From an uncultured Planctomycetales bacterium (lineage in GTDB: Bacteria > Omnitrophota > Gorgyraeia > Zapsychrales > CAYRXT01): a DNA stretch of 64,000 bases. Where the stretch lies: positions 6,140-70,139 of the forward strand of contig CAYRXT010000008.1 in the NCBI GenBank assembly GCA_964428315.1, given 5' to 3'. The position numbers were made by a program, and so were the translations under genes. The notes below the pieces were generated by a model. The model saw only the letters and a program-made list of their open reading frames with translations, was not told the DNA's origin and did no database searches. This document shows, one piece after another, positions 5,064-57,284 of the stretch (positions are counted from its first letter, which is position 1; the number at the start of each line of letters is the position of its first letter).

Positions 5064-6440
5064 TCATTTCGCAGGCCGTTTGAAGGGGATATCCAGTTTT
5101 TTCATTTTATTGTACAGGGTTGTACGGTTGACGCCGAGCGCGGCGGCGGCTTTGTTGCGGTTCCAGTTGCTTTCCCTGAGGACCGAAAGGATCAACTCGC
5201 GTTCGGGTTCCTCCAGAATTTTCTTTAACGGTTTTCCGTCGCTGGGTTTGATGGCGTCCGCCGAAAATTTTTCGGCGTTGGGGATGTCCCGCAGGTTGAG
5301 GACGTCCGTCTTGGCCATGATCACGGCGCCTTCTATCGCGTTTTCCAGCTCACGGATGTTTCCCGGCCAGTTGTATTCGAGGAAAGTCTTCCTGACCTCT
5401 TCCGAAATCCCCGTGATCTTCTTGTCGGATTTTTCGTTGTATTTACGCATGAACTCATCGACCAGCAATTCGATGTCTTCCTTGCGCTCCCTGAGCGGAG
5501 GGACCTGGATGGCGATGACGTTGATCCGGTAGTAGAGATCTTCACGGAACTCGCCTTTTTCGACCTGTTCCCGGAGATCGCGGTTAGTTGCGACGATGAT
5601 CCGCGCGTCGGTCTTCCGCGGCATGTTATCGCCCACGCGTTCGAATATCCCGTCCTGAAGAACCCGGAGCAGTTTGACCTGAAGATTGGGAGAAAACGCG
5701 TCGATTTCATCGAGGAAGATCGTGCCGTCCTTGGCATATTCGAAGCGCCCCTCCTTGTCCTTGATGGCGCCGGTGAAGGAGCCTTTCATGTGTCCGAACA
5801 GCTCGCTTTCAAGCAGTGTCTCGGAAAGTGCTCCGCAGCTGACCTCCACAAAGGGTTTGTCGAGGCGTTGTTTGTCGTTCCGCTGAATGGCCCTCGCCAC
5901 GAGGCTCTTCCCTGTTCCGCTGTCACCGGTGATCAGGATGGTCGCGTGGGTGCTGGCAACAGAGTCGATGATATGATAGATCTTCTGCATCTTTTCGCTC
6001 GCGCCGGTCATGCCGTCGTATGTTGACCGTGACGTCCTGGCCAGTTTGCGTTTGAGGCTGATGTTTTCGTCCACGATGGACTTCTTGTCAATGATCCGCT
6101 TGATGAGCAATTTGATCTCGTTGTCGATAATCGGTTTGGTGATATAGTCATAGGCGCCTTTTTTCATGGCCTCGACCGCTGTTTCGATGCTTCCGTAACC
6201 GGTGATGATGATGACCTCGGTTTCCGGGTGGTCTTTCTTGACCGCTTCCAGCAGATCGAGGCCGCTCATGGACGGAAGTTTCATGTCGGTGATGACGGCG
6301 TCCACCGGTGTATGGCTGAGGAGTTCAAGTGCGTCCTCGGCGTTTTCCGTCATATGGGCGTTGTATCCCTCAATGCGCAGGATCTCATAAAGGGATTTGC
6401 GTATAAGCGGTTCGTCGTCGACAATCAAAATATTAAACAT
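5064..6440 (-). CDS. sigma-54-dependent Fis-family response regulator (NtrC-like; PrsR-like candidate)
   Basis: Receiver domain (DDEPLIR, D...K), AAA+ sigma-54 activator motifs (GDSGTGKSLVARAIQ, GAFTGA, ESELFGH) and a C-terminal HTH. Overlaps the histidine kinase gene by 8 nt. Confidence 0.9.
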   Translation of the reverse strand: MFNILIVDDEPLIRKSLYEILRIEGYNAHMTENAEDALELLSHTPVDAVITDMKLPSMSGLDLLEAVKKDHPETEVIIITGYGSIETAVEAMKKGAYDYITKPIIDNEIKLLIKRIIDKKSIVDENISLKRKLARTSRSTYDGMTGASEKMQKIYHIIDSVASTHATILITGDSGTGKSLVARAIQRNDKQRLDKPFVEVSCGALSETLLESELFGHMKGSFTGAIKDKEGRFEYAKDGTIFLDEIDAFSPNLQVKLLRVLQDGIFERVGDNMPRKTDARIIVATNRDLREQVEKGEFREDLYYRINVIAIQVPPLRERKEDIELLVDEFMRKYNEKSDKKITGISEEVRKTFLEYNWPGNIRELENAIEGAVIMAKTDVLNLRDIPNAEKFSADAIKPSDGKPLKKILEEPERELILSVLRESNWNRNKAAAALGVNRTTLYNKMKKLDIPFKRPAK

Positions 6441-7767
6441 CTCCCGCCTCCGTCTCTTCTGGCCCCACCGGGATAGACACCGTGAATATGGCGCCTTTGC
6501 CGGGCGCGCTTTCCACGTCGATCTCCCCGCCGTAGGATTTTACGATCTCTTGGACGATCGTCAGCCCGAGCCCGCATCCCTTGTCGATATCCTTTGTCGT
6601 AAAAAAGGGGTCAAAGATCCTTTCGATCAGGTCGCTTTGAATGCCGGATCCGTTGTCCGCGACCGAGAAAAGGATTTTTCCGTCTTTAAAAGCCGTCATA
6701 ATCGCTATCTCCCCGCCGTCCCGGACCGAGTCGATGGCATTGCGCAGAAGGTTCAAAACGACGCGATCGACTCCGAAGTCCATCAAAAGAGGGACGTTAT
6801 CCGCCAGCGATTTGGTCAGCCGGATGTTCTTCTGGTACAATGCGGTCCCAAGCCCGCCGGTCGCTTCATTGACGGCGTCATTAAAATGTATCTTCTTCAT
6901 CGTCGGGGGCTCATTGCGAGAGCATGCCAGCAGACTCCGCACAATGTTGACCATGCGGTTGAGACCCGCCTTGGCCTCAATGAGATAATCCTTTACGGGA
7001 TCGTCCTCTTCGAGCTGGGTCAACGAGAGGTTGATGAAGCGCAGTACGCCGTCAAGGGGATTATTCAGTTCGTGGGCGATGCCGCCGGCCAGTTTGCCCA
7101 GCGAAGCCAGCTTCTCCTGGGTTATGACCTGGTGGCGCAGTTTGCTTGTCATTTCACTGGATTTCCCCAGTTCGTCCTTGAGCGACTGGGATTCTTTGAC
7201 GAGACGTTTGAATTTGTTGTAAAGCCGTGTGCGCCGGTAATTCAGGGCGATTTGGCTTGAGAGAAAGTCGAGGATCTGCAGTTCATTGCTGGTGAAGCGG
7301 GAGCCTGTCGTTTTGTCGGCGATGTTGATCACACCGATCAGCTTATCCTTGAAGAGTAGAGGCGCGCAGAGGAAAGACGGCGTCGAATAACCTTTACGGG
7401 GCTGGTGCTCGGGGAATCGTGTGTCGCGCGTGATATCATCCACGAAGAGAGGCTTCTTGATCTCGGCCACTTTGCCGACAACGCCTTCACCCAGCTTTTT
7501 GACCAGCTTTTCCTGTTCGCCGACTCCCATCCCGCGGCCGATTTTGAGGATCAGCTCTTGGCCGTTTTCGCTCAAAAGAAAGATAGACCCCCGTCTGGCC
7601 TGGAAGAGGTCCAGGGTCTTGTCCAGCGAGACCTCCAGGAGTTCCTGTGCCGTGAGGGTAACATTAACGGCGGCGCAGATGTCACCGATCTTTTGAAAGA
7701 CGTCCGACTGGATGAAATTTTCGGTTATGTTATCGGCCGGATTCATGGTTAGGGTATCGCAAATCAC
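6433..7767 (-). CDS. cytoplasmic GAF-domain sensor histidine kinase
   Basis: GAF domain, H-box HELNNPL, HATPase_c G-boxes (DNGSGI, GLGLTIV). Confidence 0.85.
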   Translation of the reverse strand: MICDTLTMNPADNITENFIQSDVFQKIGDICAAVNVTLTAQELLEVSLDKTLDLFQARRGSIFLLSENGQELILKIGRGMGVGEQEKLVKKLGEGVVGKVAEIKKPLFVDDITRDTRFPEHQPRKGYSTPSFLCAPLLFKDKLIGVINIADKTTGSRFTSNELQILDFLSSQIALNYRRTRLYNKFKRLVKESQSLKDELGKSSEMTSKLRHQVITQEKLASLGKLAGGIAHELNNPLDGVLRFINLSLTQLEEDDPVKDYLIEAKAGLNRMVNIVRSLLACSRNEPPTMKKIHFNDAVNEATGGLGTALYQKNIRLTKSLADNVPLLMDFGVDRVVLNLLRNAIDSVRDGGEIAIMTAFKDGKILFSVADNGSGIQSDLIERIFDPFFTTKDIDKGCGLGLTIVQEIVKSYGGEIDVESAPGKGAIFTVSIPVGPEETEAGDV

Positions 7768-7791
7768 GGTTTTAAAAATTAAGATAACGCC

Positions 7792-8691
7792 TCACGGATT
7801 AACCTCCGCTGAGGAGGCCCTCTCTTTTTTCAATTTCAACTCCCGCAATCCAGTATCCATCTGCTCAATGACCTTCTTGAGAGTATGATCCGGATGTTCC
7901 TCAAGAAATTCACGGTAAACGCTCTGTGCCCGTTGGGGATCACGGAGCTTCACAATGCTTATGGTGTTCAGCATCTGCATTGTGGACAGAAGCGACCGGC
8001 TTTGGGGGTAGGCGAACATGGTTTTTCTCAGTATCCTTACGGCATCATCCCATTTTTCCTGAAGGATCTTGCTGTTGGCCAGCAGATTCAGGGCATTCAG
8101 GCCGACCGCGGAATCCGGATGTCCTTCGGCCAGGCGCGCATAATGCGTATCCGCCCGCCGGAAGGAGGCGTCCGCTTTCTCCAGGTCTCCCCTGTCCAGA
8201 TATTTCCTTGCCAGATAAAGCGGTACCTTCAACCCGACCGGGGTTAACGGATAATCAGCAACGATTTTGTGAAGAACGGTCTCGGCCTCCGGCCAATTAT
8301 CTTCTTTCTCATAGGTGATCGCGATAGCCATGGCGGCTTCAGCCTTGAGAACGTCATTGCCCGGAAAATCCACGAACACATTTTGCAGGGAGCGCCTCGC
8401 TTTTTCGTAATTCTCTTGGGCCGTATAGAGATTGCCCAGTTGAAGTTCCGCCTGGGCCTTGATGGACGGATAGTCGTCGTAACGGTTAATGATCTTTTCG
8501 TATTGGCCGGCAATTTCTTCATAAACCGCCTTGGGGGTGGATTCCGGGTTCTTGACCGTTTCAGACAACCGCTTGTTTGTTTTCCAGAGTATCTTCTCAG
8601 CCTCGTATTGGCTTTGCCGCCCAAGCACGGACAAAAGAATATACAGCCCGATCAGGATAATTGCGCAAAAGGCTGTCAGTTTCTTCATCAT
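7792..8691 (-). CDS. TPR-repeat protein with N-terminal signal/anchor
   Basis: Hydrophobic N-terminus followed by repeated TPR-like 34-aa units (LQLGNLYTAQENYEKARRSL etc.). Confidence 0.65.
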   Translation of the reverse strand: MMKKLTAFCAIILIGLYILLSVLGRQSQYEAEKILWKTNKRLSETVKNPESTPKAVYEEIAGQYEKIINRYDDYPSIKAQAELQLGNLYTAQENYEKARRSLQNVFVDFPGNDVLKAEAAMAIAITYEKEDNWPEAETVLHKIVADYPLTPVGLKVPLYLARKYLDRGDLEKADASFRRADTHYARLAEGHPDSAVGLNALNLLANSKILQEKWDDAVRILRKTMFAYPQSRSLLSTMQMLNTISIVKLRDPQRAQSVYREFLEEHPDHTLKKVIEQMDTGLRELKLKKERASSAEVNP

Positions 8692-8707: not shown

Positions 8708-9607
8708 TCAGGAAGCGGTTCGGGAAAAAGTCTCTTGCTGTTCTTCCTTTTTCATAAGGTAAAATGTCGTAAGGGCGACCAGCACTGCCGCATCAATAAA
8801 GAGCGTGACGATGATGCTCGCGACAATGATAAGCGCCTGCCCCTCCGGAAATACGGAATTCATCTGGGGCGAAAGCGAATTGCGCATGATCAGAACAGGG
8901 ACATAAAGGATCATGGGGAAAAACACGATGCAGGTGACTGTTGTCAGTGACTTCCAAAGATATCCAAAATTCACTGCAAGCGCGGTATGGATCTTTTTCC
9001 GGTCGATAACAATCGCCGGTATGACAAAGGCAAAAACCGTTGTCACTATAATCGCGATAAGAAGCTGAAAATACGGGGCGCCGTGGATGATGACTGTCTT
9101 CAAGACGAAAAGGACGCCGGAGCTAGACCGGATCTGTTCCGCCCGCAAATAGATCTGAGCGAACAAATCCGAAAGCGTTTTAACCGCCAGGAGTGATAAA
9201 AAGGCGGCGATAATAATATGAACGTATTGCGACAGCGTGTCGCGAATAGCTGTTTTGATGACGATATGTTTCCCGTCATTGATGGCCTTGATTATCCGGA
9301 CGGCGACGGCCGTAAAAAAGGCCCCGAAAAAGACAAAGATAACCAGCTGGCTGTAAAAAAACAGTTTCGGCAACAGTATAAAATTATAGGGGTAATGCAG
9401 GAACGTCTCATGCCAGATCCGCCGGACAACTGGTCCGAAAAAAATCACCAGCGGATAGCGCGGCAAAAAATAGAGCATCTCGAGAGCCAGCAGTTGCAGG
9501 AGCGCAATCAATATAAACGGATAAAAGATGACAGGATGTCCTGCCAGGATGCCCAGTGATACCTTCAACACCGCAACCGGGTGCCGGTAAATGGCGTTTT
9601 TTTGCAT
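8708..9607 (-). CDS. polytopic integral membrane protein, unknown function
   Basis: About 8-10 predicted TM helices. First gene after the terminator at 9700-9738. It precedes the TPR, kinase and regulator genes. Confidence 0.5.
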   Translation of the reverse strand: MQKNAIYRHPVAVLKVSLGILAGHPVIFYPFILIALLQLLALEMLYFLPRYPLVIFFGPVVRRIWHETFLHYPYNFILLPKLFFYSQLVIFVFFGAFFTAVAVRIIKAINDGKHIVIKTAIRDTLSQYVHIIIAAFLSLLAVKTLSDLFAQIYLRAEQIRSSSGVLFVLKTVIIHGAPYFQLLIAIIVTTVFAFVIPAIVIDRKKIHTALAVNFGYLWKSLTTVTCIVFFPMILYVPVLIMRNSLSPQMNSVFPEGQALIIVASIIVTLFIDAAVLVALTTFYLMKKEEQQETFSRTAS

Positions 9608-9699
9608 TTGTTTATATTTAACGATTAAGGATAAAAGGAAAATTTATGCTAACAAATTCGTAACTGCATGTCAAATTTAAACTTTTATAAAGATTTGAC

Positions 9700-9738
9700 A
9701 AAAAAATAAGACAAGTTTGAGAACCTGTCTTATTTTTC
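9700..9738. terminator. bidirectional rho-independent terminator (A7 - ATAAGACA/TGTCTTAT stem - T5)
   Basis: Perfect 8-bp stem flanked by an A-run and a T-run. Downstream of the mini PEP-CTERM gene on the minus strand. Confidence 0.55.
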
Positions 9739-9799
9739 GTTGAGAAAATGAATCTCTCCATCCGTGGCAGCAAACCTTTGTTTGTCAGCAAATCCCCGG

Positions 9800-10081
9800 T
9801 TATCTTTTCTTGTTCTTCATCCGCGCATAAGCCATGACCATCATTCCGCTTCCCATTAGCATGAGGGTTGCCGGTTCCGGATTATGCAGTGTAGCCAACG
9901 AGGAACCTGCGCCTCCGGTTATCGCGGCCGCTCCGCCAGCCGACGAACCGCCTGAGGACGCGGCGAGGAATATTCCGCCGCTTCCAATCAGGCTTCCGAG
10001 TCCGCCGCCCTGACAACCGTACAGTGCGGGAAGAAGAACCGACAAGCCAATGACTTGTAATGATTGAATTAGCTTTTTCAT
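9800..10081 (-). CDS. minimal Gly/Ser-rich PEP-CTERM protein (exosortase substrate)
   Basis: Signal peptide and low-complexity G/S/A region. C-terminal PEPATLMLMGSGMMVMAYARMKNKKR gives PEP, TM helix and basic tail. Confidence 0.75.
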   Translation of the reverse strand: MKKLIQSLQVIGLSVLLPALYGCQGGGLGSLIGSGGIFLAASSGGSSAGGAAAITGGAGSSLATLHNPEPATLMLMGSGMMVMAYARMKNKKR

Positions 10082-10152
10082 AAGTTCTCTCCCTATGGTT
10101 ATTATAGCGATCTATACTCTCTAATCTCATCAGTTTGACGATCACGTCATCG

Positions 10153-10169
10153 TGCTGAACGCTTGCCAC
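10153..10169 (-). promoter_or_regulatory. candidate sigma-54 promoter (TGGCAA-N5-CAGCA; GG and GC correctly spaced)
   Basis: Minus-strand sequence GTGGCAAGCGTTCAGCA lies about 75 nt upstream of the PEP-CTERM ATG. The -12 element deviates from TTGC. Confidence 0.3.
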
Positions 10170-10263
10170 CTGGCCCCTTTATTGCCGGCAAGATACCTCA
10201 ACCTTGCTTCTGACGGTACCGCACTGACGGTTTATGTGCTTACACAGCGGCCTTTGGCTCCGG

Positions 10264-10812
10264 TTATTTCTTCCTGCGAAGACCGGCCAGGCCGAGAAGC
10301 CCAATGCCAAGTAATGACATCGTGGCAGGCTCCGGGACTGTATCATAGCCGCTGGCCGCAAGCGTGGATTTCTTAAAAATCCAGTCGCCTTTTTTTGTGT
10401 CAATTTTCACGTTCAGCAGGCCGTCGGTCTGCAACATGGCTGTATCGATATCGAATTCCAAGTCGCTGTAATCGACCTCATTGAGCCCCCGGTATTCTCC
10501 GTCCGTCCAGACTTTGATCTTTTCATCAACCCAGTCCCATCCGAATATCCAGGGGAAATCGCCTTTGTCATCGCTCACATCCAGCGTTAAGGTCGCGGAT
10601 GTCAACACATGATCAGTCGGATTAAAACCATGGATATTGATGTCGTGCGTATAAGACAGCTTATCATTCACTTCCAGGAAAAGAAAGTCTAGAGAATAAA
10701 CGTCTTTCGGATCATAAACATCGGTGAAATCCACCGGTATGACTGCCATCGCGGTTGAACTAAAAACCAGCACAAAACCAATCATCAGGCCTAAAATGGA
10801 AATCTTTATCAT
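10264..10812 (-). CDS. PEP-CTERM domain protein (secreted exosortase substrate)
   Basis: Start refined to MIKISILGL with RBS AAAGGAGA 6 nt upstream. Signal peptide. C-terminal VPEPATMSLLGIGLLGLAGLRRKK. Confidence 0.8.
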   Translation of the reverse strand: MIKISILGLMIGFVLVFSSTAMAVIPVDFTDVYDPKDVYSLDFLFLEVNDKLSYTHDINIHGFNPTDHVLTSATLTLDVSDDKGDFPWIFGWDWVDEKIKVWTDGEYRGLNEVDYSDLEFDIDTAMLQTDGLLNVKIDTKKGDWIFKKSTLAASGYDTVPEPATMSLLGIGLLGLAGLRRKK

Positions 10813-10877
10813 CTGTTTTCTCCTTTCTAATAAGTTGTTGACATTGTCTGTTTCCATTATCGCAGTAATTTATTGGA

Positions 10878-10908
10878 GGCCATTCGGCTTGCCCTATTCC
10901 GAATGGTC
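10878..10908 (-). promoter_or_regulatory. intergenic hairpin (GGCCATTCGG ... CCGAATGGTC, 9/10-bp stem)
   Basis: Inverted repeat between the sugar transferase stop and the PEP-CTERM gene. Not followed by a U-run on either strand. Confidence 0.3.
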
Positions 10909-10989
10909 ATAATATTGAATAAATCAGCACAGATTAGAACTTCTTTGAAATTTTATTTTTATGAGAAACAGCAAAAAATGCGTTCCGAC

Positions 10990-11874
10990 TTATCTCGCGC
11001 CTTCTCCAGTGAATACCACCCGTACTGTGCGCATAACTATAAGTAAATCAGTCCAGAAATTCAGCTTATTGATATAGAACCGGTCATAGCGCACTTTTTT
11101 CTTGACGTCTTCGATTGTTTCGTCATAACGATGCCGTACCTGCGCCAAACCCGTTATGCCCGGTTTGACCATAAGACGCGTTTCATATAGAGGAATGGAC
11201 TCCCTCAGCTTGGGAATGAATTCCGGCCGTTCGGGGCGGGGCCCGATAATGCTCATTTCCCCTTTTAAGACGTTCAGGAACTGCGGGATCTCATCAATAT
11301 GGGCTTTGCGAAGGAAATTCCCGATGGGGATAAGTCGGCTGTCGTTTGCCAGAGCCCATACCGGTCCGGTTTCTTTTTCCGCGTCCGTTTTCATAGTACG
11401 GAATTTAATGATTTCAAAAAGCTTGCCGTCCTTCCCGACCCGTGTCTGTGAAAAAAAGACGGGGCCTCTTGACGTCATCTTGATGGCCAGGGCGACGAGC
11501 AGGCACAGCGGCGAAAGGATGACTAAAGCCGTCAACGATCCGATGATATCGAACAACCGTTTTGCCCTATCATAGGTCCGCTGAATAAAACGGAAAACCA
11601 TTCCCATCAGTCCGCTGGCAAACAAGACCAAAGATGATGGTTCCGGCGCCCGGGATTCATTCGAGGCGTTCGAACCCCGGGATGACATTTCCACAGGATA
11701 CGCCGCGTCCATAGGTTTTACTAACGATATGGTCGCCCACGCAGTGCCCACACAAAGGCCGCCGATAATCAAGAGGCTCATGAGCACCGTTAATCGGCCG
11801 AATTTCTTTAGATATTGTGCATTTCTTTTCATAATGAAAGCGTTTGCGGAAAGCGTTTTGTTTAGTCTCAACAA
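10990..11874 (-). CDS. polyprenyl-phosphate sugar phosphotransferase (small PglC/WbaP C-terminal-domain type) with in-frame signal-peptide plus PEP-CTERM-like N-terminal extension
   Basis: Catalytic region KRLFDIIGSLTALVILSPL...GPVFFSQTRVGKDGKLFEIIKFRTM. The N-terminal 95 codons read MKRNAQYLKKFGRLTVLMSLLIIGGLCVGTAWA...RAPEPSSLVLFASGLMGMVFRFIQRTYDRAKR. The first codon of the ORF is TTG. In-frame ATGs lie at 11832, 11781 and about 11601. Confidence 0.8.
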   Translation of the reverse strand: MLRLNKTLSANAFIMKRNAQYLKKFGRLTVLMSLLIIGGLCVGTAWATISLVKPMDAAYPVEMSSRGSNASNESRAPEPSSLVLFASGLMGMVFRFIQRTYDRAKRLFDIIGSLTALVILSPLCLLVALAIKMTSRGPVFFSQTRVGKDGKLFEIIKFRTMKTDAEKETGPVWALANDSRLIPIGNFLRKAHIDEIPQFLNVLKGEMSIIGPRPERPEFIPKLRESIPLYETRLMVKPGITGLAQVRHRYDETIEDVKKKVRYDRFYINKLNFWTDLLIVMRTVRVVFTGEGAR

Positions 11875-11885
11875 TCATTATAGTA

Positions 11886-11900
11886 GCAATAAACGTGCCA
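11886..11900 (-). promoter_or_regulatory. sigma-54 promoter, full consensus CTGGCACG-N4-TTGCT
   Basis: Minus-strand sequence AATCCTGGCACGTTTATTGCTACTA. The predicted TSS is about 11875, immediately upstream of the sugar-transferase/PEP-CTERM ORF. Confidence 0.65.
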
Positions 11901-12040
11901 GGATTAAGGCGAATTGGCGAAGAACAGGTTAAGACCATAACCATTTGAAGTTAAAAGATTAATATATATTTAGGTGAACACTTATAGTATGACAAGATAA
12001 GACATTTCTAGACAAATACGGACATACCCGGAAATCATTT

Positions 12041-12058
12041 TGTTGAAATATTTCAACA
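12041..12058. promoter_or_regulatory. perfect 18-bp palindrome TGTTGAAATATTTCAACA (candidate enhancer-binding-protein UAS or operator)
   Basis: Lies about 150 bp upstream of the sigma-54 -24 element, the typical UAS distance. Confidence 0.4.
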
Positions 12059-12311
12059 TGTTGACCGGCATCATCAAGATGTACAATGAATCATCACTGT
12101 CCCAGCCAAGGTGTTATTCGCGCCGAATAGGCTCCCGTGGTGCCGCAAGCGGGAATCCATGAAGGGCAAAAATGGATCCCCGCTTAAAGCATGCCGGGAT
12201 GACAGATTCTTACAGGCATGCGGGGATGGCATGATCCTTTGTTTAGCCCACATTCCATCCGCGACAATTCGATCCTTATTTGGACATGAGTGTATAAATC
12301 AAAATCTGAAC

Positions 12312-12947
12312 TTAAGGCAGAAATTCATAAAGGAAGGGAACAATTTTTTGAATAAACGACCGGATAGTCTGCAACGTTTCTTCTTCATTATTGCCCATCT
12401 CCGAGGAGACACGGATCAGGGCACTGCTTGTTGACCGGCCGGTCAAGGCGTTGAGCGCCAGCAGTCCCTGCTGTTTCCAGTAATTCGAAGTGAATCTGTC
12501 CCGACCCGCCTTGAACCAGTAAAAGGAAAACTGCTTCTCTTCACCGAGCGTCAATTCAAGATTGTTGGCCGTGATAGACTTGTCCGAACCAGCCAGGTCG
12601 ATGCTTTCTTTGGTGTTTTTGAGAATGGTCGCCCCCCCGCCCGTGTAGCAGATTTCCGGAGGATGCGACACCTTCCGGTTTTCCCCGGAATAAACAATAA
12701 AGAGAAACACCTTTTTGCCGTTATGCCGGTTGGTATATTCCCGGATAAAAACATTGCGTGTTTCCAGGATTTCGTATTCGCGTTCGGAGATAGGCAGGTC
12801 CCTCGCCTCCCAGGGGCCGATTTCTTTTGGAAAATCATGGAGTATGACAGCCTCACGGTCGTTATAGGTCCGGAAATACCTCGACCATCCGAACAGGCCG
12901 CATGCCAGGATGAGCGAGATCAACACAAAATAACGAAAACCCTTCAT
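12312..12947 (-). CDS. exosortase-associated EpsI family protein
   Basis: Start refined to MKGFRYFVLISLILACGLFGW. VSHPPEICY motif resembles the EpsI HSPExC signature. Directly downstream of the exosortase with a 5-nt gap. Confidence 0.7.
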   Translation of the reverse strand: MKGFRYFVLISLILACGLFGWSRYFRTYNDREAVILHDFPKEIGPWEARDLPISEREYEILETRNVFIREYTNRHNGKKVFLFIVYSGENRKVSHPPEICYTGGGATILKNTKESIDLAGSDKSITANNLELTLGEEKQFSFYWFKAGRDRFTSNYWKQQGLLALNALTGRSTSSALIRVSSEMGNNEEETLQTIRSFIQKIVPFLYEFLP

Positions 12948-12952
12948 GGCGT

Positions 12953-13819
12953 TCACTCCATTATTTTCATCAGCGAATACAAAAGCACGAAAGCCAGCGC
13001 GAAGACGAGAAAACCGGACAGGTCGTGGATAAAGCCTTCGGCCCTCTCCGGTCCCCATATCTCGCTTACCGACGCCAGGAATACGACGCGGAAGACATTG
13101 GTGGCGATCGCGATCGGCACGGTTGAGATAAAAAGCGTGAGCCTTTTCAAGAGCCGTGACTTCATCCAATAGGCGAAAATCGCCCCTAGGGCCGCAAGGG
13201 ATATCAGGGAACGCAGTCCGCTGCAGACATCGTCGACAACGACAAAAGCGTGCCTCATTCTGATGATGCTTCCCTCACGAATGGCGGGGATGCGGATGCT
13301 GTTCAGCGCCTCTGTGGAGATCTGCGCCGCCAGGAGTTTCATTTGGAAACTGATGTTGGTTATCACGACCATCGGTACGGGGATCATGAACATGAGAAAC
13401 AAGACAGGAAATAGGATGAGACGGAAGACCGCCGTGCCGTAAAACAGAAGGACCATCCCGACGATCACCATCAGCATGGACCACGCCGCGGTGAAATAGA
13501 TCCGGAATACGGCGCTGGCCGCGTAGACCAGGAGCCCGGATAAAACAAATCCCCATGCCCAGCGCGAGGGCACAAAGCGCGCTTTGGCCAGCTCGTCCTT
13601 TTTTTGCCATATCAAAAAGGCCGTAACAAAGGGGATGAGGATGCCGTGGCTGTAATAGGAGTCGCGCGCGAACCAGCGCTCCCACATCCACTCGAGGACC
13701 GGGGCGTACGCCGCCAGAAATACAAGGCCGGCGGCCACAGGCCCGGCATGGGCTTTGGCTATATCCTTGACATTCATTATAGTATCAGCAAATTTAACAT
13801 AATTCGTGTTAGGCATCAA
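12953..13819 (-). CDS. exosortase (XrtA/EpsH-like)
   Basis: Eight-TM protein with YSHGILIP, DDVCSGLRSL (catalytic Cys) and ATNVFRV (Arg) signature motifs. Confidence 0.85.
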   Translation of the reverse strand: MMPNTNYVKFADTIMNVKDIAKAHAGPVAAGLVFLAAYAPVLEWMWERWFARDSYYSHGILIPFVTAFLIWQKKDELAKARFVPSRWAWGFVLSGLLVYAASAVFRIYFTAAWSMLMVIVGMVLLFYGTAVFRLILFPVLFLMFMIPVPMVVITNISFQMKLLAAQISTEALNSIRIPAIREGSIIRMRHAFVVVDDVCSGLRSLISLAALGAIFAYWMKSRLLKRLTLFISTVPIAIATNVFRVVFLASVSEIWGPERAEGFIHDLSGFLVFALAFVLLYSLMKIME

Positions 13820-13837: not shown

Positions 13838-16528
13838 TTAGTTTTGCCTTTTCATGATGGCGAACTCATCGATCCAGAAATGGGCCCCCTTTTCAGCGTT
13901 CCCGTCGGTGTGAAACTGGATCGCCGAAAGGTAGTCCGTCATAGCGAGAACGCTGCGCACGCCTCCGGCGGCGTCGAAGACGAGTTCATGCCATTGACCG
14001 TCGTCGCTGAGCTGCAGTTTGTCCTTGGCCAGGGCGCCGGCACACCGATACCCCCTCGTCCCTCCCAGACAGATCCAGTCGCCAAACCCCGTCCGAGCCC
14101 TTAAGCCCACCGGCGTGTTTTGCGGGATGCGGTAGGCGAATTTCACGAAGGGGTAGTCCCGCAGATGCCATGCGTTGATATTCACGCCGGCGGTTAGGTC
14201 CGATCCCGCGAATTTACCGGTGACCTTGAGCGCCCGGCCGTTTCTTCCGGATTCGACGATATCAAAACGGGCGTCTCCCTGGGAAGTGAACATCCCCTGC
14301 GATTTTTCGAAGCCGGCATAAAACAAAATGTCCTTACCCGCTGCCCGTTTTTCTTCGGGCAGTTCGGACAGGACGTTTCCCTTCCAGAGAGGAGAATCGT
14401 CAACGTAACCCAGGAAGTGGCCACTGGAGCGGTAATTCTGATTGAAATGTTTTTGGGAATTCAGGAAGGCTTCGGACACGCCGCGCTCGAAGACCTTCAT
14501 CCCGATCACATAGTAATCCTCGCGCTCATAACCGCTGATCAGATGACCGTAACCGAAGGCGTGGACGACCAGGAGATTCAGATCCGGCGAGCCTTCGGAG
14601 TTGGCATAATTGTCGGACGTCATATAGCGGAACGAATCGCCCCTGGCGACCAGGCCTTCCCTTATCATCCAGTCAAGGGCGCGGAACAGGGAATCCGCCG
14701 CGATCCTGTTATGCGTTAACCGGTGAAGTTTAACAACTGGCTCGAGGAGAATACCCGTCATGAAAGGCGACCCCCCGTATTCATCAGGTCTCGCGCCTTC
14801 GTCGGGATCATGGGCGTAAAGGTTGTGGATAAACCCTCCCCGGTCCGGCCACTGGATCTGCGTGAGATAAAGATGCTCCATGTATTGTTCAGCGGCTTTG
14901 AGATACGCCGTGTCCTGCGATATTTCATAATAGGACAGAACACCGAGAAACGGAAAGGCATAACGCCGTTCGGTCCAAAAATTCGTGCGGCCTTTTTCAT
15001 AAAAAGCGTCTTCAGGAGGAAAATGTGTTTTTAAATAATCCGCCATGTATCCGGCAACCTCCAGCGATCGCGGGTCTCCCGTCAGAAGATAGTCGTCGGC
15101 CAGGGCCTGCACATAGACGTATCGGGGTTCCCTGCCGGCCGTGCTCCGTCCCCTCTCAGAGCCGTCGAGAACGATTTGATTCTCACGGTAAAAAATGAGT
15201 TCCTTCCTGGCAGCCAGAAAATAATCCAGGTTCCCCGAGCGCGCGTAAAACTGGTAGTAGACGTGCGGTGTGGAATAGTAGCCATCTTTACGGACGTCAC
15301 CGGTCCTTTCTTTTTCGGAAAGACGGGGGAAATACCGTTCGATGTGCTGATCGTAAACAGCGGCCGGGCCACGGACTTTCCGGCGGATGGCCTTTTGCCG
15401 CTCAAGCTCCCTCATTTCCGACGCGGAGAGATCGCTTTGACCGGCCTTATCTTCCGGCGCGGGCGTATAACTCATGGGGCGCTGGGCGCCTGTAACCTCG
15501 GAACCGCAAAGCCATTCAGCCGGCAGGACGATAAAACCTTCGGGCAGGTCCCAACGCGGTTCCTGCACCGGAAGGGATTCCAAACCGCGTCTTTCCCCCC
15601 ATTCCATTGTCACATATTCATAAAAACGCGGAACGTCATAGGAAAACTGGACGAGAAGGGAGCGGATAGAATTGTCCCGGGGCCATCGGGCCAGAACGCG
15701 CACGGCAACGGGGATCTCTTTTCCTGCGGCATCGAGGAAACGGACCATCCGGTCTGATGTGAGCTGTCCGGGACCGAAAGGGATCCCGGTTGAAACCAAG
15801 ACAGAATCGCCCTTAGTTTTTTTCAATTTGGCGACGGGTACCTTGATACGTCCCTCTTTGGGCAGCTGATTTTGAGGCGGCATTTTGGCCAGGCGTATGC
15901 TGAGAGTTTGTTTATCCGTATCCGTTTTTGCGGCCGGCGCGATTGTATGCGGAGTAGAAATTGGTCCGGCGTCTTCTTTATACACCTCCCTCTCCTGTCG
16001 CACGAGCCGCAGGTTGTCGAAAAACAGGGTGAAGCTTTTGTCCGGTTTCTTGAGGAAGAAGACCACAAACCGGATATGAGAGGCATTAATTTTCCGTGCG
16101 ATCTCTGACCGGTCAACACTGAGGCTGTTCATGCCCGGCTTTAAAATTCGGGAAGTCTGCGCCCGTTTACGGTTGTTATCGTCAAGCCTGATGTAGAGTT
16201 CCAGGTCTTCCTGCCTGGGATTGTAGACATCCAAAGCAAGAGATGCATATTCCCCCCAGTTTTGAGGAAGTTTTTTGGTGTTAATGCTGGGCCAGTCGTC
16301 CTTGGGGAATTCGGCCTTCAAGGCATAACGCCCCTGCGTCACATGGTCCTTGGACAATTCCAGAGCAAAGCCTTGTTCCGGTGATGTGTCCCAGACCTTG
16401 ACATCTTCAAAATCCGAGAGAAGACGCGCTGTTCCTGCGCCTTCTTTTCCGTCGTCACCGGTCAGGCTCATCAACAGAGCACCGGCGCAGATAATGACCA
16501 GTATCGGTATCCATTTTTTTAAACCCAT
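13838..16528 (-). CDS. large secreted protein, unknown function (possible alpha/alpha-toroid polysaccharide lyase or hydrolase with beta-sandwich modules)
   Basis: Start refined to MGLKKWIPILVIICAGALLMS with RBS GAGGTG and a signal peptide. No PEP-CTERM. Immediately upstream of the exosortase in the same operon. Confidence 0.55.
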   Translation of the reverse strand: MGLKKWIPILVIICAGALLMSLTGDDGKEGAGTARLLSDFEDVKVWDTSPEQGFALELSKDHVTQGRYALKAEFPKDDWPSINTKKLPQNWGEYASLALDVYNPRQEDLELYIRLDDNNRKRAQTSRILKPGMNSLSVDRSEIARKINASHIRFVVFFLKKPDKSFTLFFDNLRLVRQEREVYKEDAGPISTPHTIAPAAKTDTDKQTLSIRLAKMPPQNQLPKEGRIKVPVAKLKKTKGDSVLVSTGIPFGPGQLTSDRMVRFLDAAGKEIPVAVRVLARWPRDNSIRSLLVQFSYDVPRFYEYVTMEWGERRGLESLPVQEPRWDLPEGFIVLPAEWLCGSEVTGAQRPMSYTPAPEDKAGQSDLSASEMRELERQKAIRRKVRGPAAVYDQHIERYFPRLSEKERTGDVRKDGYYSTPHVYYQFYARSGNLDYFLAARKELIFYRENQIVLDGSERGRSTAGREPRYVYVQALADDYLLTGDPRSLEVAGYMADYLKTHFPPEDAFYEKGRTNFWTERRYAFPFLGVLSYYEISQDTAYLKAAEQYMEHLYLTQIQWPDRGGFIHNLYAHDPDEGARPDEYGGSPFMTGILLEPVVKLHRLTHNRIAADSLFRALDWMIREGLVARGDSFRYMTSDNYANSEGSPDLNLLVVHAFGYGHLISGYEREDYYVIGMKVFERGVSEAFLNSQKHFNQNYRSSGHFLGYVDDSPLWKGNVLSELPEEKRAAGKDILFYAGFEKSQGMFTSQGDARFDIVESGRNGRALKVTGKFAGSDLTAGVNINAWHLRDYPFVKFAYRIPQNTPVGLRARTGFGDWICLGGTRGYRCAGALAKDKLQLSDDGQWHELVFDAAGGVRSVLAMTDYLSAIQFHTDGNAEKGAHFWIDEFAIMKRQN

Positions 16529-16532
16529 AAAA

Positions 16533-17642
16533 TCACCTCGATTCAATACGACTATGTATTTTATAATCCCTGAATCCGCCGGGATCACCGTTTTGGCCGG
16601 CCTCGGCGGCCTTGATGATGTTCACCATTTCCCTGGCGGTGACATAGTGAAGACGGAATCGGATTCCGTCGTCGTATCCCGCGCAAAGATATCTGTGCAT
16701 TTCCTCAATGGGGCCTTTGAGAAGCACCCCCCGGTTTTCCTCTGTCGCGCCGTGGGTATGGACCTTGATGAATATCCAATCGTCACGGCCGGCGACCCGG
16801 ATCATACAGCGCGCCCAAAGGTCAACGCGGTTTGCGTCCGGTGGGTTGAAAGCCGATATCTCTCCGTTTTCGATCCGGGGAAAGAGACCGAATTTCCTTT
16901 TATTCCAGTTCAGTGCCAGCGGCCCCTGAACCAACAGTAGCGCCGAGTCCACAGCGCTCATTCCTTCGGCGCATTCCACACCGTCGTTATGGGATTTGGG
17001 CGCGTTCTCATTGTTGTGGACGTCGTAGTACAGGCTGTTGATGGTCCTGGTCTGTGTCTCGCTGGGCGCCGAAGGCATGGTGAAATCTGCGTAACACCCT
17101 TCATCCTTGAGGATCGAGGTTTCGTTGTTGACGCCGCACCACCGGCCGTCCCTGCGTGAATTGTTGAGACTCCAGTTGCCATGTATGAAGCCGAAACGGA
17201 TCTCCCCGGTTGTCTTGTCCGCCCCCAAAAGTCCGTGACGGGAGAAATTTTTCTTGGCCAGACGGATCTTCTGACGGAAAGAGCGGGCGTTGTCGCCGTC
17301 GTGGTGCAGATGGATTTCCACCTCTCCATAACCCCTTCGGCACAGGTCGGCCAGACGTTCCAGATGTCCGGCGTTATACGTTTCTGCCGGGTAGAAAAAG
17401 GTGTGCCGGGGATGCCGGCCGTCGCCGTCAAAAAACCTGTCGGCCATGGACGGGTACCGCTCTGTCCAGGCTTTGACGCGCTCGAGCTGCTGCTCCGGAC
17501 CGGCCCTGTTCCAGTCCGGTTCAAAGTGGTCCGCGAGACAGAACATGACATGCGCGGGCCGGGCTGGATGTTCCCGTCTTCTCAGACGCGCGAGCTGCTG
17601 CCGGATATATGCCGGAAGCCAGATGTGGGTGTTTTTGAACAT
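16533..17642 (-). CDS. hypothetical protein, possibly a divergent polysaccharide deacetylase or carbohydrate esterase-like enzyme
   Basis: His-rich motifs (EIHLHHDGD, KVHTHG) and an FCLADHFEP segment. Family assignment is weak. Confidence 0.4.
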   Translation of the reverse strand: MFKNTHIWLPAYIRQQLARLRRREHPARPAHVMFCLADHFEPDWNRAGPEQQLERVKAWTERYPSMADRFFDGDGRHPRHTFFYPAETYNAGHLERLADLCRRGYGEVEIHLHHDGDNARSFRQKIRLAKKNFSRHGLLGADKTTGEIRFGFIHGNWSLNNSRRDGRWCGVNNETSILKDEGCYADFTMPSAPSETQTRTINSLYYDVHNNENAPKSHNDGVECAEGMSAVDSALLLVQGPLALNWNKRKFGLFPRIENGEISAFNPPDANRVDLWARCMIRVAGRDDWIFIKVHTHGATEENRGVLLKGPIEEMHRYLCAGYDDGIRFRLHYVTAREMVNIIKAAEAGQNGDPGGFRDYKIHSRIESR

Positions 17643-55601: not shown

Positions 55602-55616
55602 GCAATTATCATACCA
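55602..55616 (-). promoter_or_regulatory. candidate sigma-54-type promoter (TGGTAT-N5-TTGC) upstream of the HTH gene
   Basis: Minus-strand TGGTATGATAATTGC with correct GG-N10-GC spacing, about 45 nt upstream of the refined start. The -24 element deviates from TGGCAC. Confidence 0.25.
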
Positions 55617-55922
55617 TTTAAGAAAACGATTTCTCATATCTAAATAATTATTATAACTTATTGTTGGTATAAAGGTTACATAATTGCACAGAGCTAATTT
55701 ATTGCTGAGTTGAATAGTCATGTATTTCTGTATGTTTAACATAATTAACAATAATGTCTATGACATGGTAGGACAATCCCAGAAATTATGCGTTAAGTTG
55801 CATTTATGTCATGTCTAACAATTTGAACCATAAGTAAGTCCTTTTTAAACAAATAGTTAGAAGGAATTTTGATAATCATTTGAAATTTGTAATATTTGGA
55901 TCCGCATGGTATACTTTTTGCT

Positions 55923-57284
55923 ATGGACCAGCGTCTATCAAAATTGCAGGTTCAAAAACAGATATTATCTCCTGTTATGCAGAGGTCGATTACCATCCTG
56001 ACCCTGCCGATCACGGAACTCAACCAGGCCATTGAAACAGAGCTTCAGGATAATCCTTTTCTCGAGTCCGAAGAAGACATGAACCAGATGGTTGAATTGC
56101 CGCCAGAGGGCGCCCCAACGTCTTTGGAATTGATGTATCAGATGGCCGAGGATGAGCTTCCTGATAAGTCTACGGGTAAGAAGGAAGAGGTCTTTTTCCG
56201 GGTTGCCCAGGCCATATCCTTAAGCGATTATCTTCTTCAGCAGCTTCGTATTGAGCTAAGCGATCCGGAAGATATCAGGATCGGTGAGGTCATTATAGGG
56301 AATATCAACGATAACGGTTATCTTACGGTTTCTCTTGATGACATCGCGGGGCAATGCGGATTAACCGAAACCGGCAGAATCCTGCGCATTCTTTCACGCA
56401 TTCAAACATTTGATCCGCCCGGGGTGGGGGCGAGAGATATCAAGGAGTGCCTTGCTATTCAGCTGGACAACCTGGAGTGGGACGACAAGCCTTTGGCCTT
56501 ACAGATCATTCAAGATCACTGGGATGATCTGGCGAAGAAGAGATTTGACCTGATTGCCCGACGTTTGAGCATTTCCACGGAACGGACGAAACACATATTT
56601 AACTTTATCTCAGGGCTCGAGCCGAAACCGGCGCGCAATTTTTTCCCGATCAACACGCAAATCTATGTCAAACCGGATCTGTTTGTCGTCAGGCAAGGTG
56701 ACGGCCTTGAAGTCAAAATAAATTCCGAGGGGGTCCCCCTTTTGAAGATCAGCCCGCTATACAGGGCAATGCTCAGAAAGGAGAATTTAACCGACGAGGA
56801 AAGAGCTTTCTTGAAAAACAAAATGGAAAGCGCCGTGCAGTTTATACGCAGCATCAGACAAAGAGAAACCACTTTGCGCAATATCGCCGAGGATATTCTC
56901 CGTCATCAACAGCGATTTTTTGAGATGGGCCCTGTCGGGCTGTGCCCCCTGACTTTAAAGGACGTCGCCGGACGCATCGACCGCGATGAGTCAACGGTCT
57001 CGCGCACTATCCGCAACAAATATATGGACACGCCGATGGGGATCTTTCCCATGAAGTTCTTTTTTTCCAATGCCGTGGCCATGGAAAATAACGGCAAGAC
57101 AACTTCACGGGGCATCAAGGAAGAACTTAAAGAGCTTATTAACGGCGAAGATAAAACGAAACCTCTTTCTGACCAGGCCATTGTTGAATATTTCAGGAAA
57201 AAAGGGATGATATTGGCCAGGAGGACTGTCGCCAAATATCGTCAGAACTGCCGTATTTCTCCCTCCCATCTCCGTAAGGAATAA
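55923..57284 (+). CDS. rpoN: RNA polymerase sigma-54 factor
   Basis: N-terminal LQQxL-type region I (MDQRLSKLQVQKQILSPVMQRSITIL), C-terminal HTH and RpoN box ARRTVAKYR. Confidence 0.9.
   Translation: MDQRLSKLQVQKQILSPVMQRSITILTLPITELNQAIETELQDNPFLESEEDMNQMVELPPEGAPTSLELMYQMAEDELPDKSTGKKEEVFFRVAQAISLSDYLLQQLRIELSDPEDIRIGEVIIGNINDNGYLTVSLDDIAGQCGLTETGRILRILSRIQTFDPPGVGARDIKECLAIQLDNLEWDDKPLALQIIQDHWDDLAKKRFDLIARRLSISTERTKHIFNFISGLEPKPARNFFPINTQIYVKPDLFVVRQGDGLEVKINSEGVPLLKISPLYRAMLRKENLTDEERAFLKNKMESAVQFIRSIRQRETTLRNIAEDILRHQQRFFEMGPVGLCPLTLKDVAGRIDRDESTVSRTIRNKYMDTPMGIFPMKFFFSNAVAMENNGKTTSRGIKEELKELINGEDKTKPLSDQAIVEYFRKKGMILARRTVAKYRQNCRISPSHLRKE

Follow-up and report, generated by a model that had tools for sequence, protein, structure and literature searches.

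An internal PEP-CTERM module in a predicted priming phosphoglycosyl transferase of an exosortase locus

Results

A four-part precursor encoded by one gene

The window, i.e. the whole 64,000-nucleotide stretch of DNA that was analysed, carries on its minus strand an uninterrupted open reading frame (10990..11874), within which a gene starting at the ATG at 11832 (10990..11832, stop codon included) encodes a precursor of 280 residues. From N- to C-terminus, the protein comprises a signal peptide, a putatively periplasmic stub of 28 residues, a PEP-CTERM module and a phosphoglycosyl transferase (PGT) of the PglC type. The first-pass annotation had described the frame as continuous, which it is, and all strings quoted there are present: the translation includes MKRNAQYLKKFGRLTVLMSLLIIGGLCVGTAWA, RAPEPSSLVLFASGLMGMVFRFIQRTYDRAKR and KRLFDIIG, with the codon of Met78 at 11601. 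An exact database look-up of the 280-residue window protein returned no record; the sole identical match is P0001, a truncated fragment of 240 residues.

The signal peptide (residues 1–33; 11734..11832, minus strand) was assigned by inspection of its n-h-c layout, with a basic n-region of five K/R, a hydrophobic core and a signal-peptidase-I-type site between A-W-A and T. Alignments show that this layout and the TAWAT string are kept across homologues, and cleavage probably follows A-W-A. The stub (residues 34–61; 11650..11733, minus strand) begins with the conserved motif [LVI]S[FL][VI]KPxDA and continues as a variable linker, the least conserved section of the protein; this linker had been called Ser/Asn-rich, which holds for part of it and not throughout. 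Since SxVKPxDA is absent from the N-termini of the neighbouring PEP-CTERM proteins, the stub is not readily seen as left over from a cargo encoded next to it. The charge distribution obeys the positive-inside rule, with five K/R in the n-region and five after the second transmembrane helix. The PGT fold and a pair of N-terminal helices are borne out by the AF2 model, which has a helix at residues 2–36 and predicts the stub to be disordered (pLDDT below 50; residues 41–65 of low confidence). The model is uninformative for the PEP region and for binding partners.

The PEP-CTERM module resembles ordinary sorting tails

The internal PEP-CTERM module (residues 62–92; 11557..11649, minus strand) is comprised of A-PEP, a Gly-rich transmembrane helix SSLVLFASGLMGMVF and a basic, predicted cytoplasmic segment RFIQRTYDRAKR. 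Pfam PF07589 matches residues 62–81 with 21.9 bits against a gathering cut-off of 20.7, and all 95 aligned family members (95/95) are matched as well; TIGR02595 was not among the matches of the window protein at E <= 0.01 in the profile search. The layout expected of a PEP-CTERM domain is Pro-Glu-Pro, followed by a hydrophobic helix of ~14 residues and then a basic cluster. The motif, the helix and the cluster are all present, the same protein has, by inspection, a signal peptide, and an exosortase and other PEP-CTERM proteins lie in the window and in homologous loci. The position differs, as ~190 residues follow the basic cluster instead of the module standing at the extreme C-terminus. PEP-CTERM domains are C-terminal 'virtually without exception' (Haft 2006, PMC1569441), with a median of 3 residues beyond them (PMC1569441), so that the arrangement is indeed unusual, as had been remarked at first pass.

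We compared the internal segment with a consensus drawn from the 42 ordinary C-terminal PEP-CTERM tails that the same loci encode, and the two agree position by position over about a dozen positions. Two departures were observed. PEP is preceded by Ala in 98% of the small-stub family and by Val, Ile or Asn in ordinary tails, and the hydrophobic stretch is ~2 residues longer in the small-stub family; these features could alter or abolish processing. A few distant relatives carry the degenerate motifs PEA or PEV, which indicates that an imperfect PEP is compatible with retention of the helix.

The catalytic domain is that of a monotopic PGT

The monotopic PGT domain (residues 91–274; 11011..11562, minus strand) is matched by Pfam PF02397 Bac_transf at 230.9 bits (cut-off 27) and by TIGR03025 EPS_sugtrans at 304.5 bits (cut-off 295.55). 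Basic residues precede a helix with a Ser-Pro break (K91-R92-LFDIIGSLTALVILSPLCLLVALAIK), in which P108 is invariant and L106 and S107 are at least 90% conserved; by analogy with PglC, this N-terminal helix is presumably re-entrant rather than spanning. In the family alignment, the dyad D180-E181 (11290–11295) and G197-P-R-P-E-R-P203 are invariant, and these elements align with LDELPQ...GPRP of WbaP (E = 1.2e-33). Matches to the solved chains of WbaP and of PglC of Campylobacter (PDB 8G1N, 8E37) reach E values of ~1e-32 to 1e-33. TIGR03013 EpsB_2 scores 265.9 bits, below its cut-off of 393.35, and covers only profile positions 237–443 (the C-terminal 207), and PF13727 is not matched. The catalytic domain is closest to that of the large PGTs of PEP-CTERM systems, whose four-helix N-terminal domain is missing here. 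No second PGT domain was found within the window. The gene product is, by prediction, the initiating PGT of an exosortase-linked polysaccharide locus, transferring a sugar-1-phosphate to polyprenyl phosphate.

The fusion gene lies in an exosortase locus

All neighbouring genes described here are on the minus strand. Two genes upstream of the fusion gene lies an exosortase of the EpsH family (12953..13819; PF09721, 225.5 bits; TIGR02602, 171.8 bits against 105.55; TIGR04178 signature), accompanied by the exosortase-associated EpsI (12312..12947; TIGR02914, 94 bits against 42.8; PF11984 matched), whose start is probably the Met at 12947, as judged from homologue lengths of 209–223 residues. Directly downstream is an ordinary PEP-CTERM protein of 182 residues starting MIKIS... 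(10264..10812), with PF07589 at its C-terminus (32.1 bits); no sigma-54 element was found for this gene itself. It is followed by a small Gly/Ser-rich protein (9800..10081) whose signal is lipobox-like (LYGC) and whose C-terminus is a PEP-CTERM (PF07589, 23.2 bits), similar small proteins being present in loci L010, L011, L016, L026 and L028. The fusion gene probably heads an operon with these two ordinary PEP-CTERM genes. The homologous loci have the same order, with exosortase and EpsI directly upstream and PEP-CTERM genes directly downstream, and the exosortase is upstream of the fusion gene in 24/29 Omnitrophota loci. With PF07589 and PF02397 on one protein and an exosortase nearby, the earlier description of a real PEP-CTERM fused to the priming transferase in an exosortase locus stands.

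Further along the locus is a conserved protein of 299 residues (8708..9607) with no Pfam or NCBIfam match, which always stands ahead of the TPR gene in these loci and has homologues in Omnitrophota and in the large-cargo loci L033–L036. The regulatory genes (5064..8691) were assigned from Pfam as a PrsT-like TPR protein (7792–8691), a GAF histidine kinase (6433–7767) and a sigma-54-dependent response regulator (5064–6440), and their synteny is conserved. Scores against the equivalog models stay below the cut-offs for XrtA (168.2 against 208), PrsK (87.3 against 300), PrsT (30.3 against 312) and PrsR (TIGR02915 PEP_resp_reg, 400.6 against 502.6), which suggests analogous parts in an exosortase subtype that lacks a classification.

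A sigma-54 type promoter precedes the full-length start

A sigma-54 type -24/-12 promoter element, TGGCACGTTTATTGC (11886..11900, minus strand), begins 68 nt upstream of the ATG and is the sole exact match to such an element in the window. An equivalent element lies upstream of the full-length fusion gene in 28/29 loci, 227–272 nt ahead of the PEP codons; sigma-54-type regulation of PEP-CTERM genes is known in Proteobacteria (PMC1569441). The 5' UTR contains two direct CGCTTTC half-sites (11836..11855, minus strand), related to the 12-bp palindrome GAAARCGYTTTC of homologous 5' UTRs, a motif found in 11 of 25 distinct loci compared with 0.47 on average and at most 3 in shuffles. An Rfam scan of 9000–13000 gave just one sub-threshold chance match, so no riboswitch is seen in the 480 nt ahead of the fusion gene. 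We also considered an ATAAC...GTTAT inverted repeat, resembling an enhancer, ahead of the promoter; it exceeds shuffles in only 2 loci.

The architecture is conserved and under selection

Among the matches listed, [AV]PEP lies exactly 136 residues ahead of PRPE in 120/120 homologues, which are ~60% identical and, where named, come from Candidatus Omnitrophota. The same architecture recurs in 26 distinct loci from independent assemblies. By sequence comparison, well over a hundred relatives share the fusion design. P63, E64 and P65 show no variation, and the adjoining L-F-G-x-G-x-x-G-M helix is almost invariant. For codons 1–77 the dN/dS ratio is 0.06–0.25; for the PEP-TM-basic segment it is 0.03–0.16, comparable with the 0.05–0.09 of the catalytic domain, and the stub has the highest ratio of the whole protein. 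The N-terminal part is under purifying selection.

The first-pass annotation had raised a lost stop codon as one origin of the fusion, to be checked on orthologous loci. No stop or frameshift separates PEP-CTERM and transferase in the 120 listed homologues or in the 26 distinct loci, and no stand-alone small ORF with signal peptide, stub and PEP-CTERM was found among the short database matches, which are contig-end truncations or frameshifted or chimeric calls. A lost stop therefore fails as a recent lesion or sequencing error and survives as ancient history, given the in-frame cargo fusions described below. The scan for related loci used two peptide patterns, and because just these two were used, absence from other phyla in that scan is weak evidence.

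Relatives carry full-size cargo domains

In some relatives, one of them from Elusimicrobiota, full-size cargo domains stand ahead of the PEP-CTERM and the same PGT. The cargo of P0139 is a choice-of-anchor N domain (NF038141, 53.8 bits; cut-off 40), with TIGR02595 also matched; that of P0182 shares 42% identity (E = 2e-40) with a free PEP-CTERM protein; and P0288 and P0148 share 45% identity from end to end. An exosortase is also near in the divergent large-cargo loci L034–L036, and none was found within 10 kb in L033 (Elusimicrobiota). The full-size cargo domains together with the 42% match to a free protein show that the class arose by fusion of PEP-CTERM genes with the PGT gene and was then kept. 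As judged from these proteins, independent fusion or swapping has put several kinds of cargo domain ahead of the same PGT.

Discussion

We lean towards the reading that the precursor resembles a PEP-CTERM substrate which the exosortase would bind and may cleave, tying the initiation of polysaccharide synthesis to protein sorting. The sigma-54 promoter would transcribe the fusion gene together with the two ordinary PEP-CTERM cargo genes, presumably activated by the nearby PrsR-like regulator. The Sec pathway would insert the N-terminus via the signal peptide, with the probable cut after A-W-A. The resulting layout would place the stub in the periplasm and PEP at the outer face of the membrane, with the Gly-rich helix spanning and the basic segment, the re-entrant helix and the catalytic domain on the cytoplasmic side; we propose this topology because no other lets the enzyme work. 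The neighbouring exosortase probably binds the PEP helix as it would those of other substrates, and cleavage, which we put forward more tentatively, would occur at PEP. Such a cut would remove the stub, or the full cargo domain in relatives, and leave the transferase anchored by its former sorting helix beside the sorting enzyme; processing of the PEP-CTERM and stub may in turn affect enzyme activity. Priming would thereby be tied to sorting in place, time and stoichiometry, and such a coupling is plausible from the gene arrangement. A precedent exists in archaeosortase ArtA, an exosortase homologue, which cleaves the central signal of a fusion protein, HVO_0405, as described in PMC7157517. 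A 28-residue stub looks too small for useful cargo, and the PEA/PEV relatives, the L033 locus, the Ala before PEP and the longer hydrophobic stretch also speak against this reading.

The same observations can be read in other ways. The PEP helix might dock in the exosortase groove uncut, holding the PGT in a complex or competing with cargo as a regulator. The R-A-PEP signature and the longer helix, which depart from ordinary tails nearest the presumed scissile region, fit such a tether or pseudo-substrate, as does the tiny stub with a conserved motif of its own, and the PEP segment is as conserved as the catalytic domain, as expected for a permanent interface. We nevertheless consider it rather unlikely, as the domains of the large-cargo relatives occur as free sorted PEP-CTERM proteins, which makes most sense if they are released, and ArtA does cut an internal signal. 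More doubtful still is that the signal peptide and the former PEP-CTERM helix merely form a two-helix hairpin replacing the membrane domain of a large PGT (TIGR03013/WbaP type), with no present contact to exosortase. The kinship of the catalytic domain with large PGTs, whose four-helix domain has no counterpart here, the imperfect motifs of some relatives and the absence of an exosortase within 10 kb in L033 agree with this. A plain anchor would need neither an invariant P-E-P in the periplasm nor the very Gly-spaced helix face that real substrates have, and PglC-type enzymes need no transmembrane helix at all; the tight synteny with exosortase and the variety of cargo domains placed before the same PGT likewise argue against it.

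Two further readings concern the gene itself. The first-pass annotation had suggested that the transferase might start internally; in this reading translation would begin at Met76 or Met78, with the upstream part untranslated or a separate leader. Met78 is conserved in 88% of the family and a PglC-like enzyme could begin about there, but Met at this position also belongs to the ordinary PEP-CTERM consensus. The selection on codons 1–77, the conserved signal-peptide features and a promoter placed for the full-length start, with no promoter or obvious ribosome-binding site seen before Met78, make an internal start highly improbable. That the fusion is an artefact or pseudogene of this genome alone, caused by an indel or recent stop loss, has nothing in its favour except the oddity of the architecture; the orthologue comparison refutes it, and we give it practically no weight.

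Exosortases and PEP-CTERM signals were predicted in 2006 and always occur amid polysaccharide genes. The locus shares much with the exosortase (EpsH) system with PrsK, PrsR and PrsT described in PMC1569441, namely the order of signal peptide, PEP, Gly-rich helix and basic cluster, an exosortase adjoining EpsI, a sigma-54 promoter ahead of the gene, and a TPR protein, histidine kinase and sigma-54 response regulator within a polysaccharide cluster. Unlike in that system, the module here is internal, with a cytoplasmic enzyme of 190 residues instead of ~3 residues behind it, the 'cargo' measures just 28 residues, and the exosortase and regulators fall below the XrtA, PrsK, PrsR and PrsT equivalog cut-offs. 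The enzyme shares Bac_transf, the re-entrant helix with its Ser-Pro break, the Asp-Glu dyad and the PRP motif with small monotopic PGTs such as PglC of Campylobacter, which, however, lacks a transmembrane span and has just a few residues ahead of its re-entrant helix, compared with ~90 extra N-terminal residues here. Large WbaP-like PGTs of TIGR03013 (EpsB_2) have a closely related catalytic domain and also serve exosortase-linked polysaccharide loci, but carry a multi-helix N-terminal domain with a CoA-binding-like PF13727 and no PEP, in place of the signal peptide, stub and PEP-CTERM. The nearest parallel in design is HVO_0405 of Haloferax volcanii, described as a two-gene fusion with a central sortase-type signal and a cytoplasmic C-terminal domain (PMC7157517), an ArtA substrate whose central tripartite signal is cleaved according to experiment (Abdul Halim et al. 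2017, as reported in PMC7157517). It differs in being archaeal and a strain-specific accident, with a PGF-type signal and a C-terminal domain that is not a glycan-pathway enzyme; the present fusion is maintained across a phylum and is seen again with other cargo domains. In the literature we found no paper or curated family model combining PEP-CTERM with a phosphoglycosyl transferase, and the 2024 monoPGT census makes no mention of exosortase, signal peptides or fusions.

The fusion is a counter-example to the rule that PEP-CTERM functions at the C-terminus only, and a fourth architecture beside the small, large and bifunctional classes of monotopic PGT, its members being currently annotated as plain 'sugar transferase'. 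A cut in mid-protein would cause a large size shift, as HVO_0405 does for ArtA, which would make the fusion a convenient reporter of exosortase activity. Omnitrophota is a phylum with almost no experimental biology. One bolder form of the model, which we regard as improbable, is a coupling device in which each exosortase turnover on the precursor deposits one active priming transferase next to the exosortase, and the polyprenyl-linked glycan started by this transferase is or becomes the acceptor that receives PEP-CTERM proteins. Archaeosortase ArtA needs the co-localised lipid-synthesis enzymes PssA and PssD, a parallel to such a device; if true, it would supply the connection of PEP-CTERM sorting with exopolysaccharide that has long been sought and would point to the exosortase acceptor. 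Evolution has joined a sorting signal to a polysaccharide-starting enzyme repeatedly and stably, and the fusion yields a specific hypothesis on the way in which sorting may be coupled to glycan priming.

Architecture and conservation of the fusion protein

The minus-strand ORF spans 11874 (TTG) to a stop at 10990, and its translation contains all the strings quoted in the first-pass annotation. Biologically, translation makes most sense from the ATG at 11832, which gives 280 residues; the promoter position also speaks against the TTG, a codon that would lie at the predicted transcript start. The protein belongs to the Bac_transf/TIGR03025 family: PF02397 (Bac_transf) matches residues 91–274 with 230.9 bits (cut-off 27), and TIGR03025 (exopolysaccharide polyprenyl glycosylphosphotransferase) matches the whole protein with 304.5 bits (cut-off 295.55), while PF07589 (PEP-CTERM) matches residues 62–81 with 21.9 bits (cut-off 20.7). 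Solved WbaP and PglC chains match the catalytic part with E ~1e-33, with the GPRP motif and the Asp-Glu dyad (D180, E181) in register. In an AlphaFold2 model computed from 95 sequences (mean pLDDT 79.7), a helix (2–36) is followed by a disordered stretch (37–65), a long helix (75–120) and then the transferase fold. The fusion is the sole monotopic transferase within the 64-kb window, where only two PEP modules occur besides its own.

We searched 5.8 billion proteins for homologues. The 120 best matches listed are nearly all ~270–300 aa long, with 56–66% identity and 90–100% query coverage, and those with names come from Candidatus Omnitrophota metagenome-assembled genomes. All 120 carry [AV]PEP exactly 136 residues ahead of the catalytic PRPE, and this constant spacing indicates that no indel separates sorting motif and active site. 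In alignments of 25 and 95 sequences, P63, E64 and P65 are invariant, while A62, L70, F71, G72, G74, G77 and the A-x-A type site ending the signal peptide are ≥90% conserved. A profile of residues 28–125 recovered 46 clusters at E <= 1e-10 from 1.84 billion cluster representatives. The taxonomy of fusion carriers was taken from source-given names and a narrow pattern scan; with one genome per GTDB species, the scan found the full N-terminal module in 24 loci, all in Omnitrophota assemblies, some of which carry the third-party label 'uncultured Planctomycetales'.

The PEP-CTERM module and its predicted topology

Ordinary PEP-CTERM proteins encoded at the fusion loci supplied 42 distinct C-terminal tails for comparison, and the segment tracks them position by position: PEP-[AST]-[ST]-[ML]-x-L-[LF]-G-[ST]-G-x-x-G-[LM], then basic residues. 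Immediately ahead of PEP, 98% of fusions have Ala, whereas ordinary tails have Val, Ile or Asn; Arg precedes Ala-PEP in 82% of fusions, and their hydrophobic stretch is ~2 residues longer. By local standards the sequence is that of a genuine PEP-CTERM module. The earlier claim of a PEP-CTERM joined to the transferase is thus upheld by the PF07589 score above cut-off, by matches to the Pfam model in 95 of 95 aligned family members and by the agreement with local tails.

The basic n-region has five K/R and the second helix is trailed by five K/R; signal-peptide cleavage was judged by inspection. The predicted topology is self-consistent: helix 1 would run from inside to outside, followed by a periplasmic stub of 28 residues, PEP at the outer face and helix 2 returning inwards, which would place the re-entrant helix and the catalytic domain on the cytoplasmic side. 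The Haft 2006 model arranges an ordinary PEP-CTERM protein in the same way (PMC1569441).

Genomic context and sigma-54 promoter

The fusion gene (10990–11832, minus strand) ends a ~50-kb polysaccharide cluster, encoded entirely on the minus strand, with many glycosyltransferases, an epimerase, a methyltransferase, a Wzt-type ABC transporter, Wzy_C and Wzz/GNVR proteins. It is preceded by exosortase (12953–13819, minus), EpsI (12312–12947, minus) and a promoter-bearing gap of 480 nt, and followed by an ordinary PEP-CTERM protein (10264–10812, minus), a small Gly/Ser-rich lipobox-plus-PEP-CTERM protein (9800–10081, minus), a conserved unknown protein (8708–9607, minus), a TPR protein, a GAF histidine kinase, a sigma-54-dependent response regulator and a PocR/GAF protein. 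Homologous loci match this gene order, with an exosortase upstream of the fusion in 24 of 29 Omnitrophota loci. Of the five in which none was found, L005, L012 and L023 have short upstream flanks.

Several neighbours deserve description. The 8708–9607 product (299 aa, no Pfam or NCBIfam match) is always encoded just ahead of the PrsT-like TPR gene, has homologues in Omnitrophota loci and in divergent large-cargo loci (L033–L036) at E 1e-18 to 1e-83, and is likely to be a core component, so far undescribed, of this exosortase subtype. The Gly/Ser-rich 9800–10081 product combines a lipobox-like [IV]YGC with a C-terminal HNPEP-type PEP-CTERM, and thus two different anchoring signals in one tiny low-complexity protein; similar ORFs of ~90–130 aa occur in L010, L011, L016, L026 and L028. 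Immediately upstream of the exosortase, 13838–16588 (minus) encodes 916 aa that NCBIfam does not match and that resemble PcRGLX and GH127-type glycoside hydrolase domains only weakly, below threshold. The mechanical EpsI ORF (12312–13169, minus) overlaps the exosortase gene end by 217 nt (12953–13169); the real start is likely the Met at 12947, giving 211 aa (homologues, 209–223 aa).

A sigma-54 type -24/-12 element, TGGCACGTTTATTGC, lies at 11886–11900 (minus) as the sole exact match in the window, and in 28 of 29 loci the element precedes the full-length start, 227–272 nt ahead of the PEP codons. Neither of the two PEP-CTERM genes downstream has a separate sigma-54 element, so both are probably co-transcribed with the fusion gene. 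After the second of them, AAGACAGGTTCTCAAACTTGTCTTATTTTTTT (approximately 9706–9740, minus) resembles an intrinsic terminator, and beyond it lies a good match to a sigma-70-like promoter, TTGACA-17-TAGCAT (9674–9646, minus); this arrangement suggests a single sigma-54 operon of these three genes, apart from the regulator genes. In Proteobacteria, PEP-CTERM genes are typically single, with long leaders and a sigma-54 promoter under PrsR control (PMC1569441), and here the transferase gene is handled as if it were one of them.

Other regulatory motifs were observed. A 12-bp palindrome, GAAARCGYTTTC, which could be an operator or small hairpin, occurs ~5–30 nt before the fusion-gene start codon in 11 of 25 loci (0.47 expected), with copies in the 5' UTRs of L001, L002, L006, L007, L009, L010, L014, L016, L027 and L029; the window has two related direct CGCTTTC copies at 11836–11855 (minus). 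Two more sigma-54-like elements (TGGTAT-N5-TTGCT), intergenic at 55602–55616 (minus) and 55907–55921 (plus), diverge ~300 nt apart ahead of ORF 55896–57284 (plus) and opposite-strand genes.

Codon alignments of 26 distinct loci, using pairs with unsaturated synonymous changes, gave dN/dS of 0.06–0.25 for codons 1–77, 0.03–0.16 for the PEP-helix-basic segment and 0.05–0.09 for the catalytic domain; constraint is weakest in the variable linker. These sequence data strongly suggest that the N-terminal part is translated. The first-pass annotation had also offered a transferase starting at Met78 (11601), with the PEP segment as a leader; this lacks support, because the codons upstream of that Met are constrained and the promoter is placed for the full-length start, and we consider it very unlikely. 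Met78 itself belongs to the PEP-CTERM consensus of ordinary tails. The other suggestion, an indel or recent stop loss joining a small PEP-CTERM gene to the transferase, is refuted by the homologues, none of which is interrupted by a stop or frameshift on the way from the PEP segment to the KRLFD segment of the transferase; short database matches are contig-end truncations or frameshifted calls. With the fusion kept in 120 of 120 listed homologues, an artefact is extremely improbable.

Large-cargo relatives and origin of the fusion

The profile search also gave 310–500-aa proteins with full-size cargo, laid out as signal peptide, extracytoplasmic domain of 100–250 residues, xPEP, helix, basic cluster and transferase. 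Specifically, P0139 carries NF038141 'choice-of-anchor N' (53.8 bits, cut-off 40) with TIGR02595 PEP_CTERM (21.8 bits, cut-off 16) behind it. Locus L036 encodes, directly upstream of a fusion gene, a free PEP-CTERM protein of 204 aa with which the cargo of P0182 (Elusimicrobiota at NCBI) shares 42% identity over 195 residues (E = 2e-40). P0288 and P0148, 45% identical over their full length, share a third cargo type. Exosortase and EpsI genes are present at the P0139, P0288 and P0291 loci, together with free PEP-CTERM genes and the genes for the conserved unknown and TPR proteins; the P0182 locus has these last three, with no exosortase within 10 kb. Since these relatives carry full-size cargo ahead of PEP-CTERM and transferase, in-frame fusion has joined whole PEP-CTERM protein genes, with at least three unrelated cargo domains, to this transferase, and the fusions have been retained. 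With its 28-residue stub, the family found in the window represents the minimal form. Nearest to the catalytic domains are the TIGR03013 transferases of XrtA/PEP-CTERM systems in other phyla, which have a multi-helix, CoA-binding-like region in place of the fusion's N-terminal part; the fusion protein is not a TIGR03013 member.

Among the proteins from the profile search, and outside the window, P0137 (2500 aa, 10 units), P0168, P0229, P0259 and P0269 are long single ORFs of 3–10 complete cargo-xPEP-helix-RRRR units, each basic cluster directly abutting a signal-peptide-like hydrophobic stretch. Either they are true PEP-CTERM polyproteins that carry sorting signals internally, or they are an artefact of gene calling or of the genetic code.

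Novelty and proposed role

According to Haft 2006, PEP-CTERM lies near the C-terminus 'virtually without exception', and the few long-tailed cases are perhaps non-functional (PMC1569441). The fusion's module lacks this one defining feature, C-terminal position, and the family is a conserved counter-example to the rule, in keeping with the initial description of the architecture as unusual. Our literature search found no paper joining PEP-CTERM and phosphoglycosyl transferase, and neither exosortase nor signal peptides nor fusions come up in the 2024 proteome-wide census of monotopic phosphoglycosyl transferases. NCBIfam lacks a dedicated model, and the proteins are annotated at source as 'sugar transferase' or 'hypothetical protein'. 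On this evidence the fusion is undescribed. Its transferase and PEP-CTERM parts are known; what appears to be new is an internal PEP-CTERM joined to a transferase and kept by evolution.

The fusion is a conserved precursor whose PEP motif faces outwards; it is co-located and co-regulated with exosortase and its substrates. The exosortase probably binds its PEP helix as it does its own substrates. More tentatively, it may also cleave the precursor: archaeosortase ArtA, an exosortase homologue, cleaves the central signal of the gene-fusion protein HVO_0405 (PMC7157517), and the relatives' cargo domains otherwise occur as free, sorted proteins. The family-specific R-A-PEP signature, longer helix and tiny stub argue against cleavage, and the protein might instead be a permanent, uncleaved tether or pseudo-substrate, which we think rather unlikely; that the segment is a co-opted membrane anchor without exosortase interaction seems somewhat less likely still. 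After cleavage by the exosortase, the former sorting helix would still anchor the transferase next to that enzyme, and polysaccharide priming would thereby be tied to sorting.
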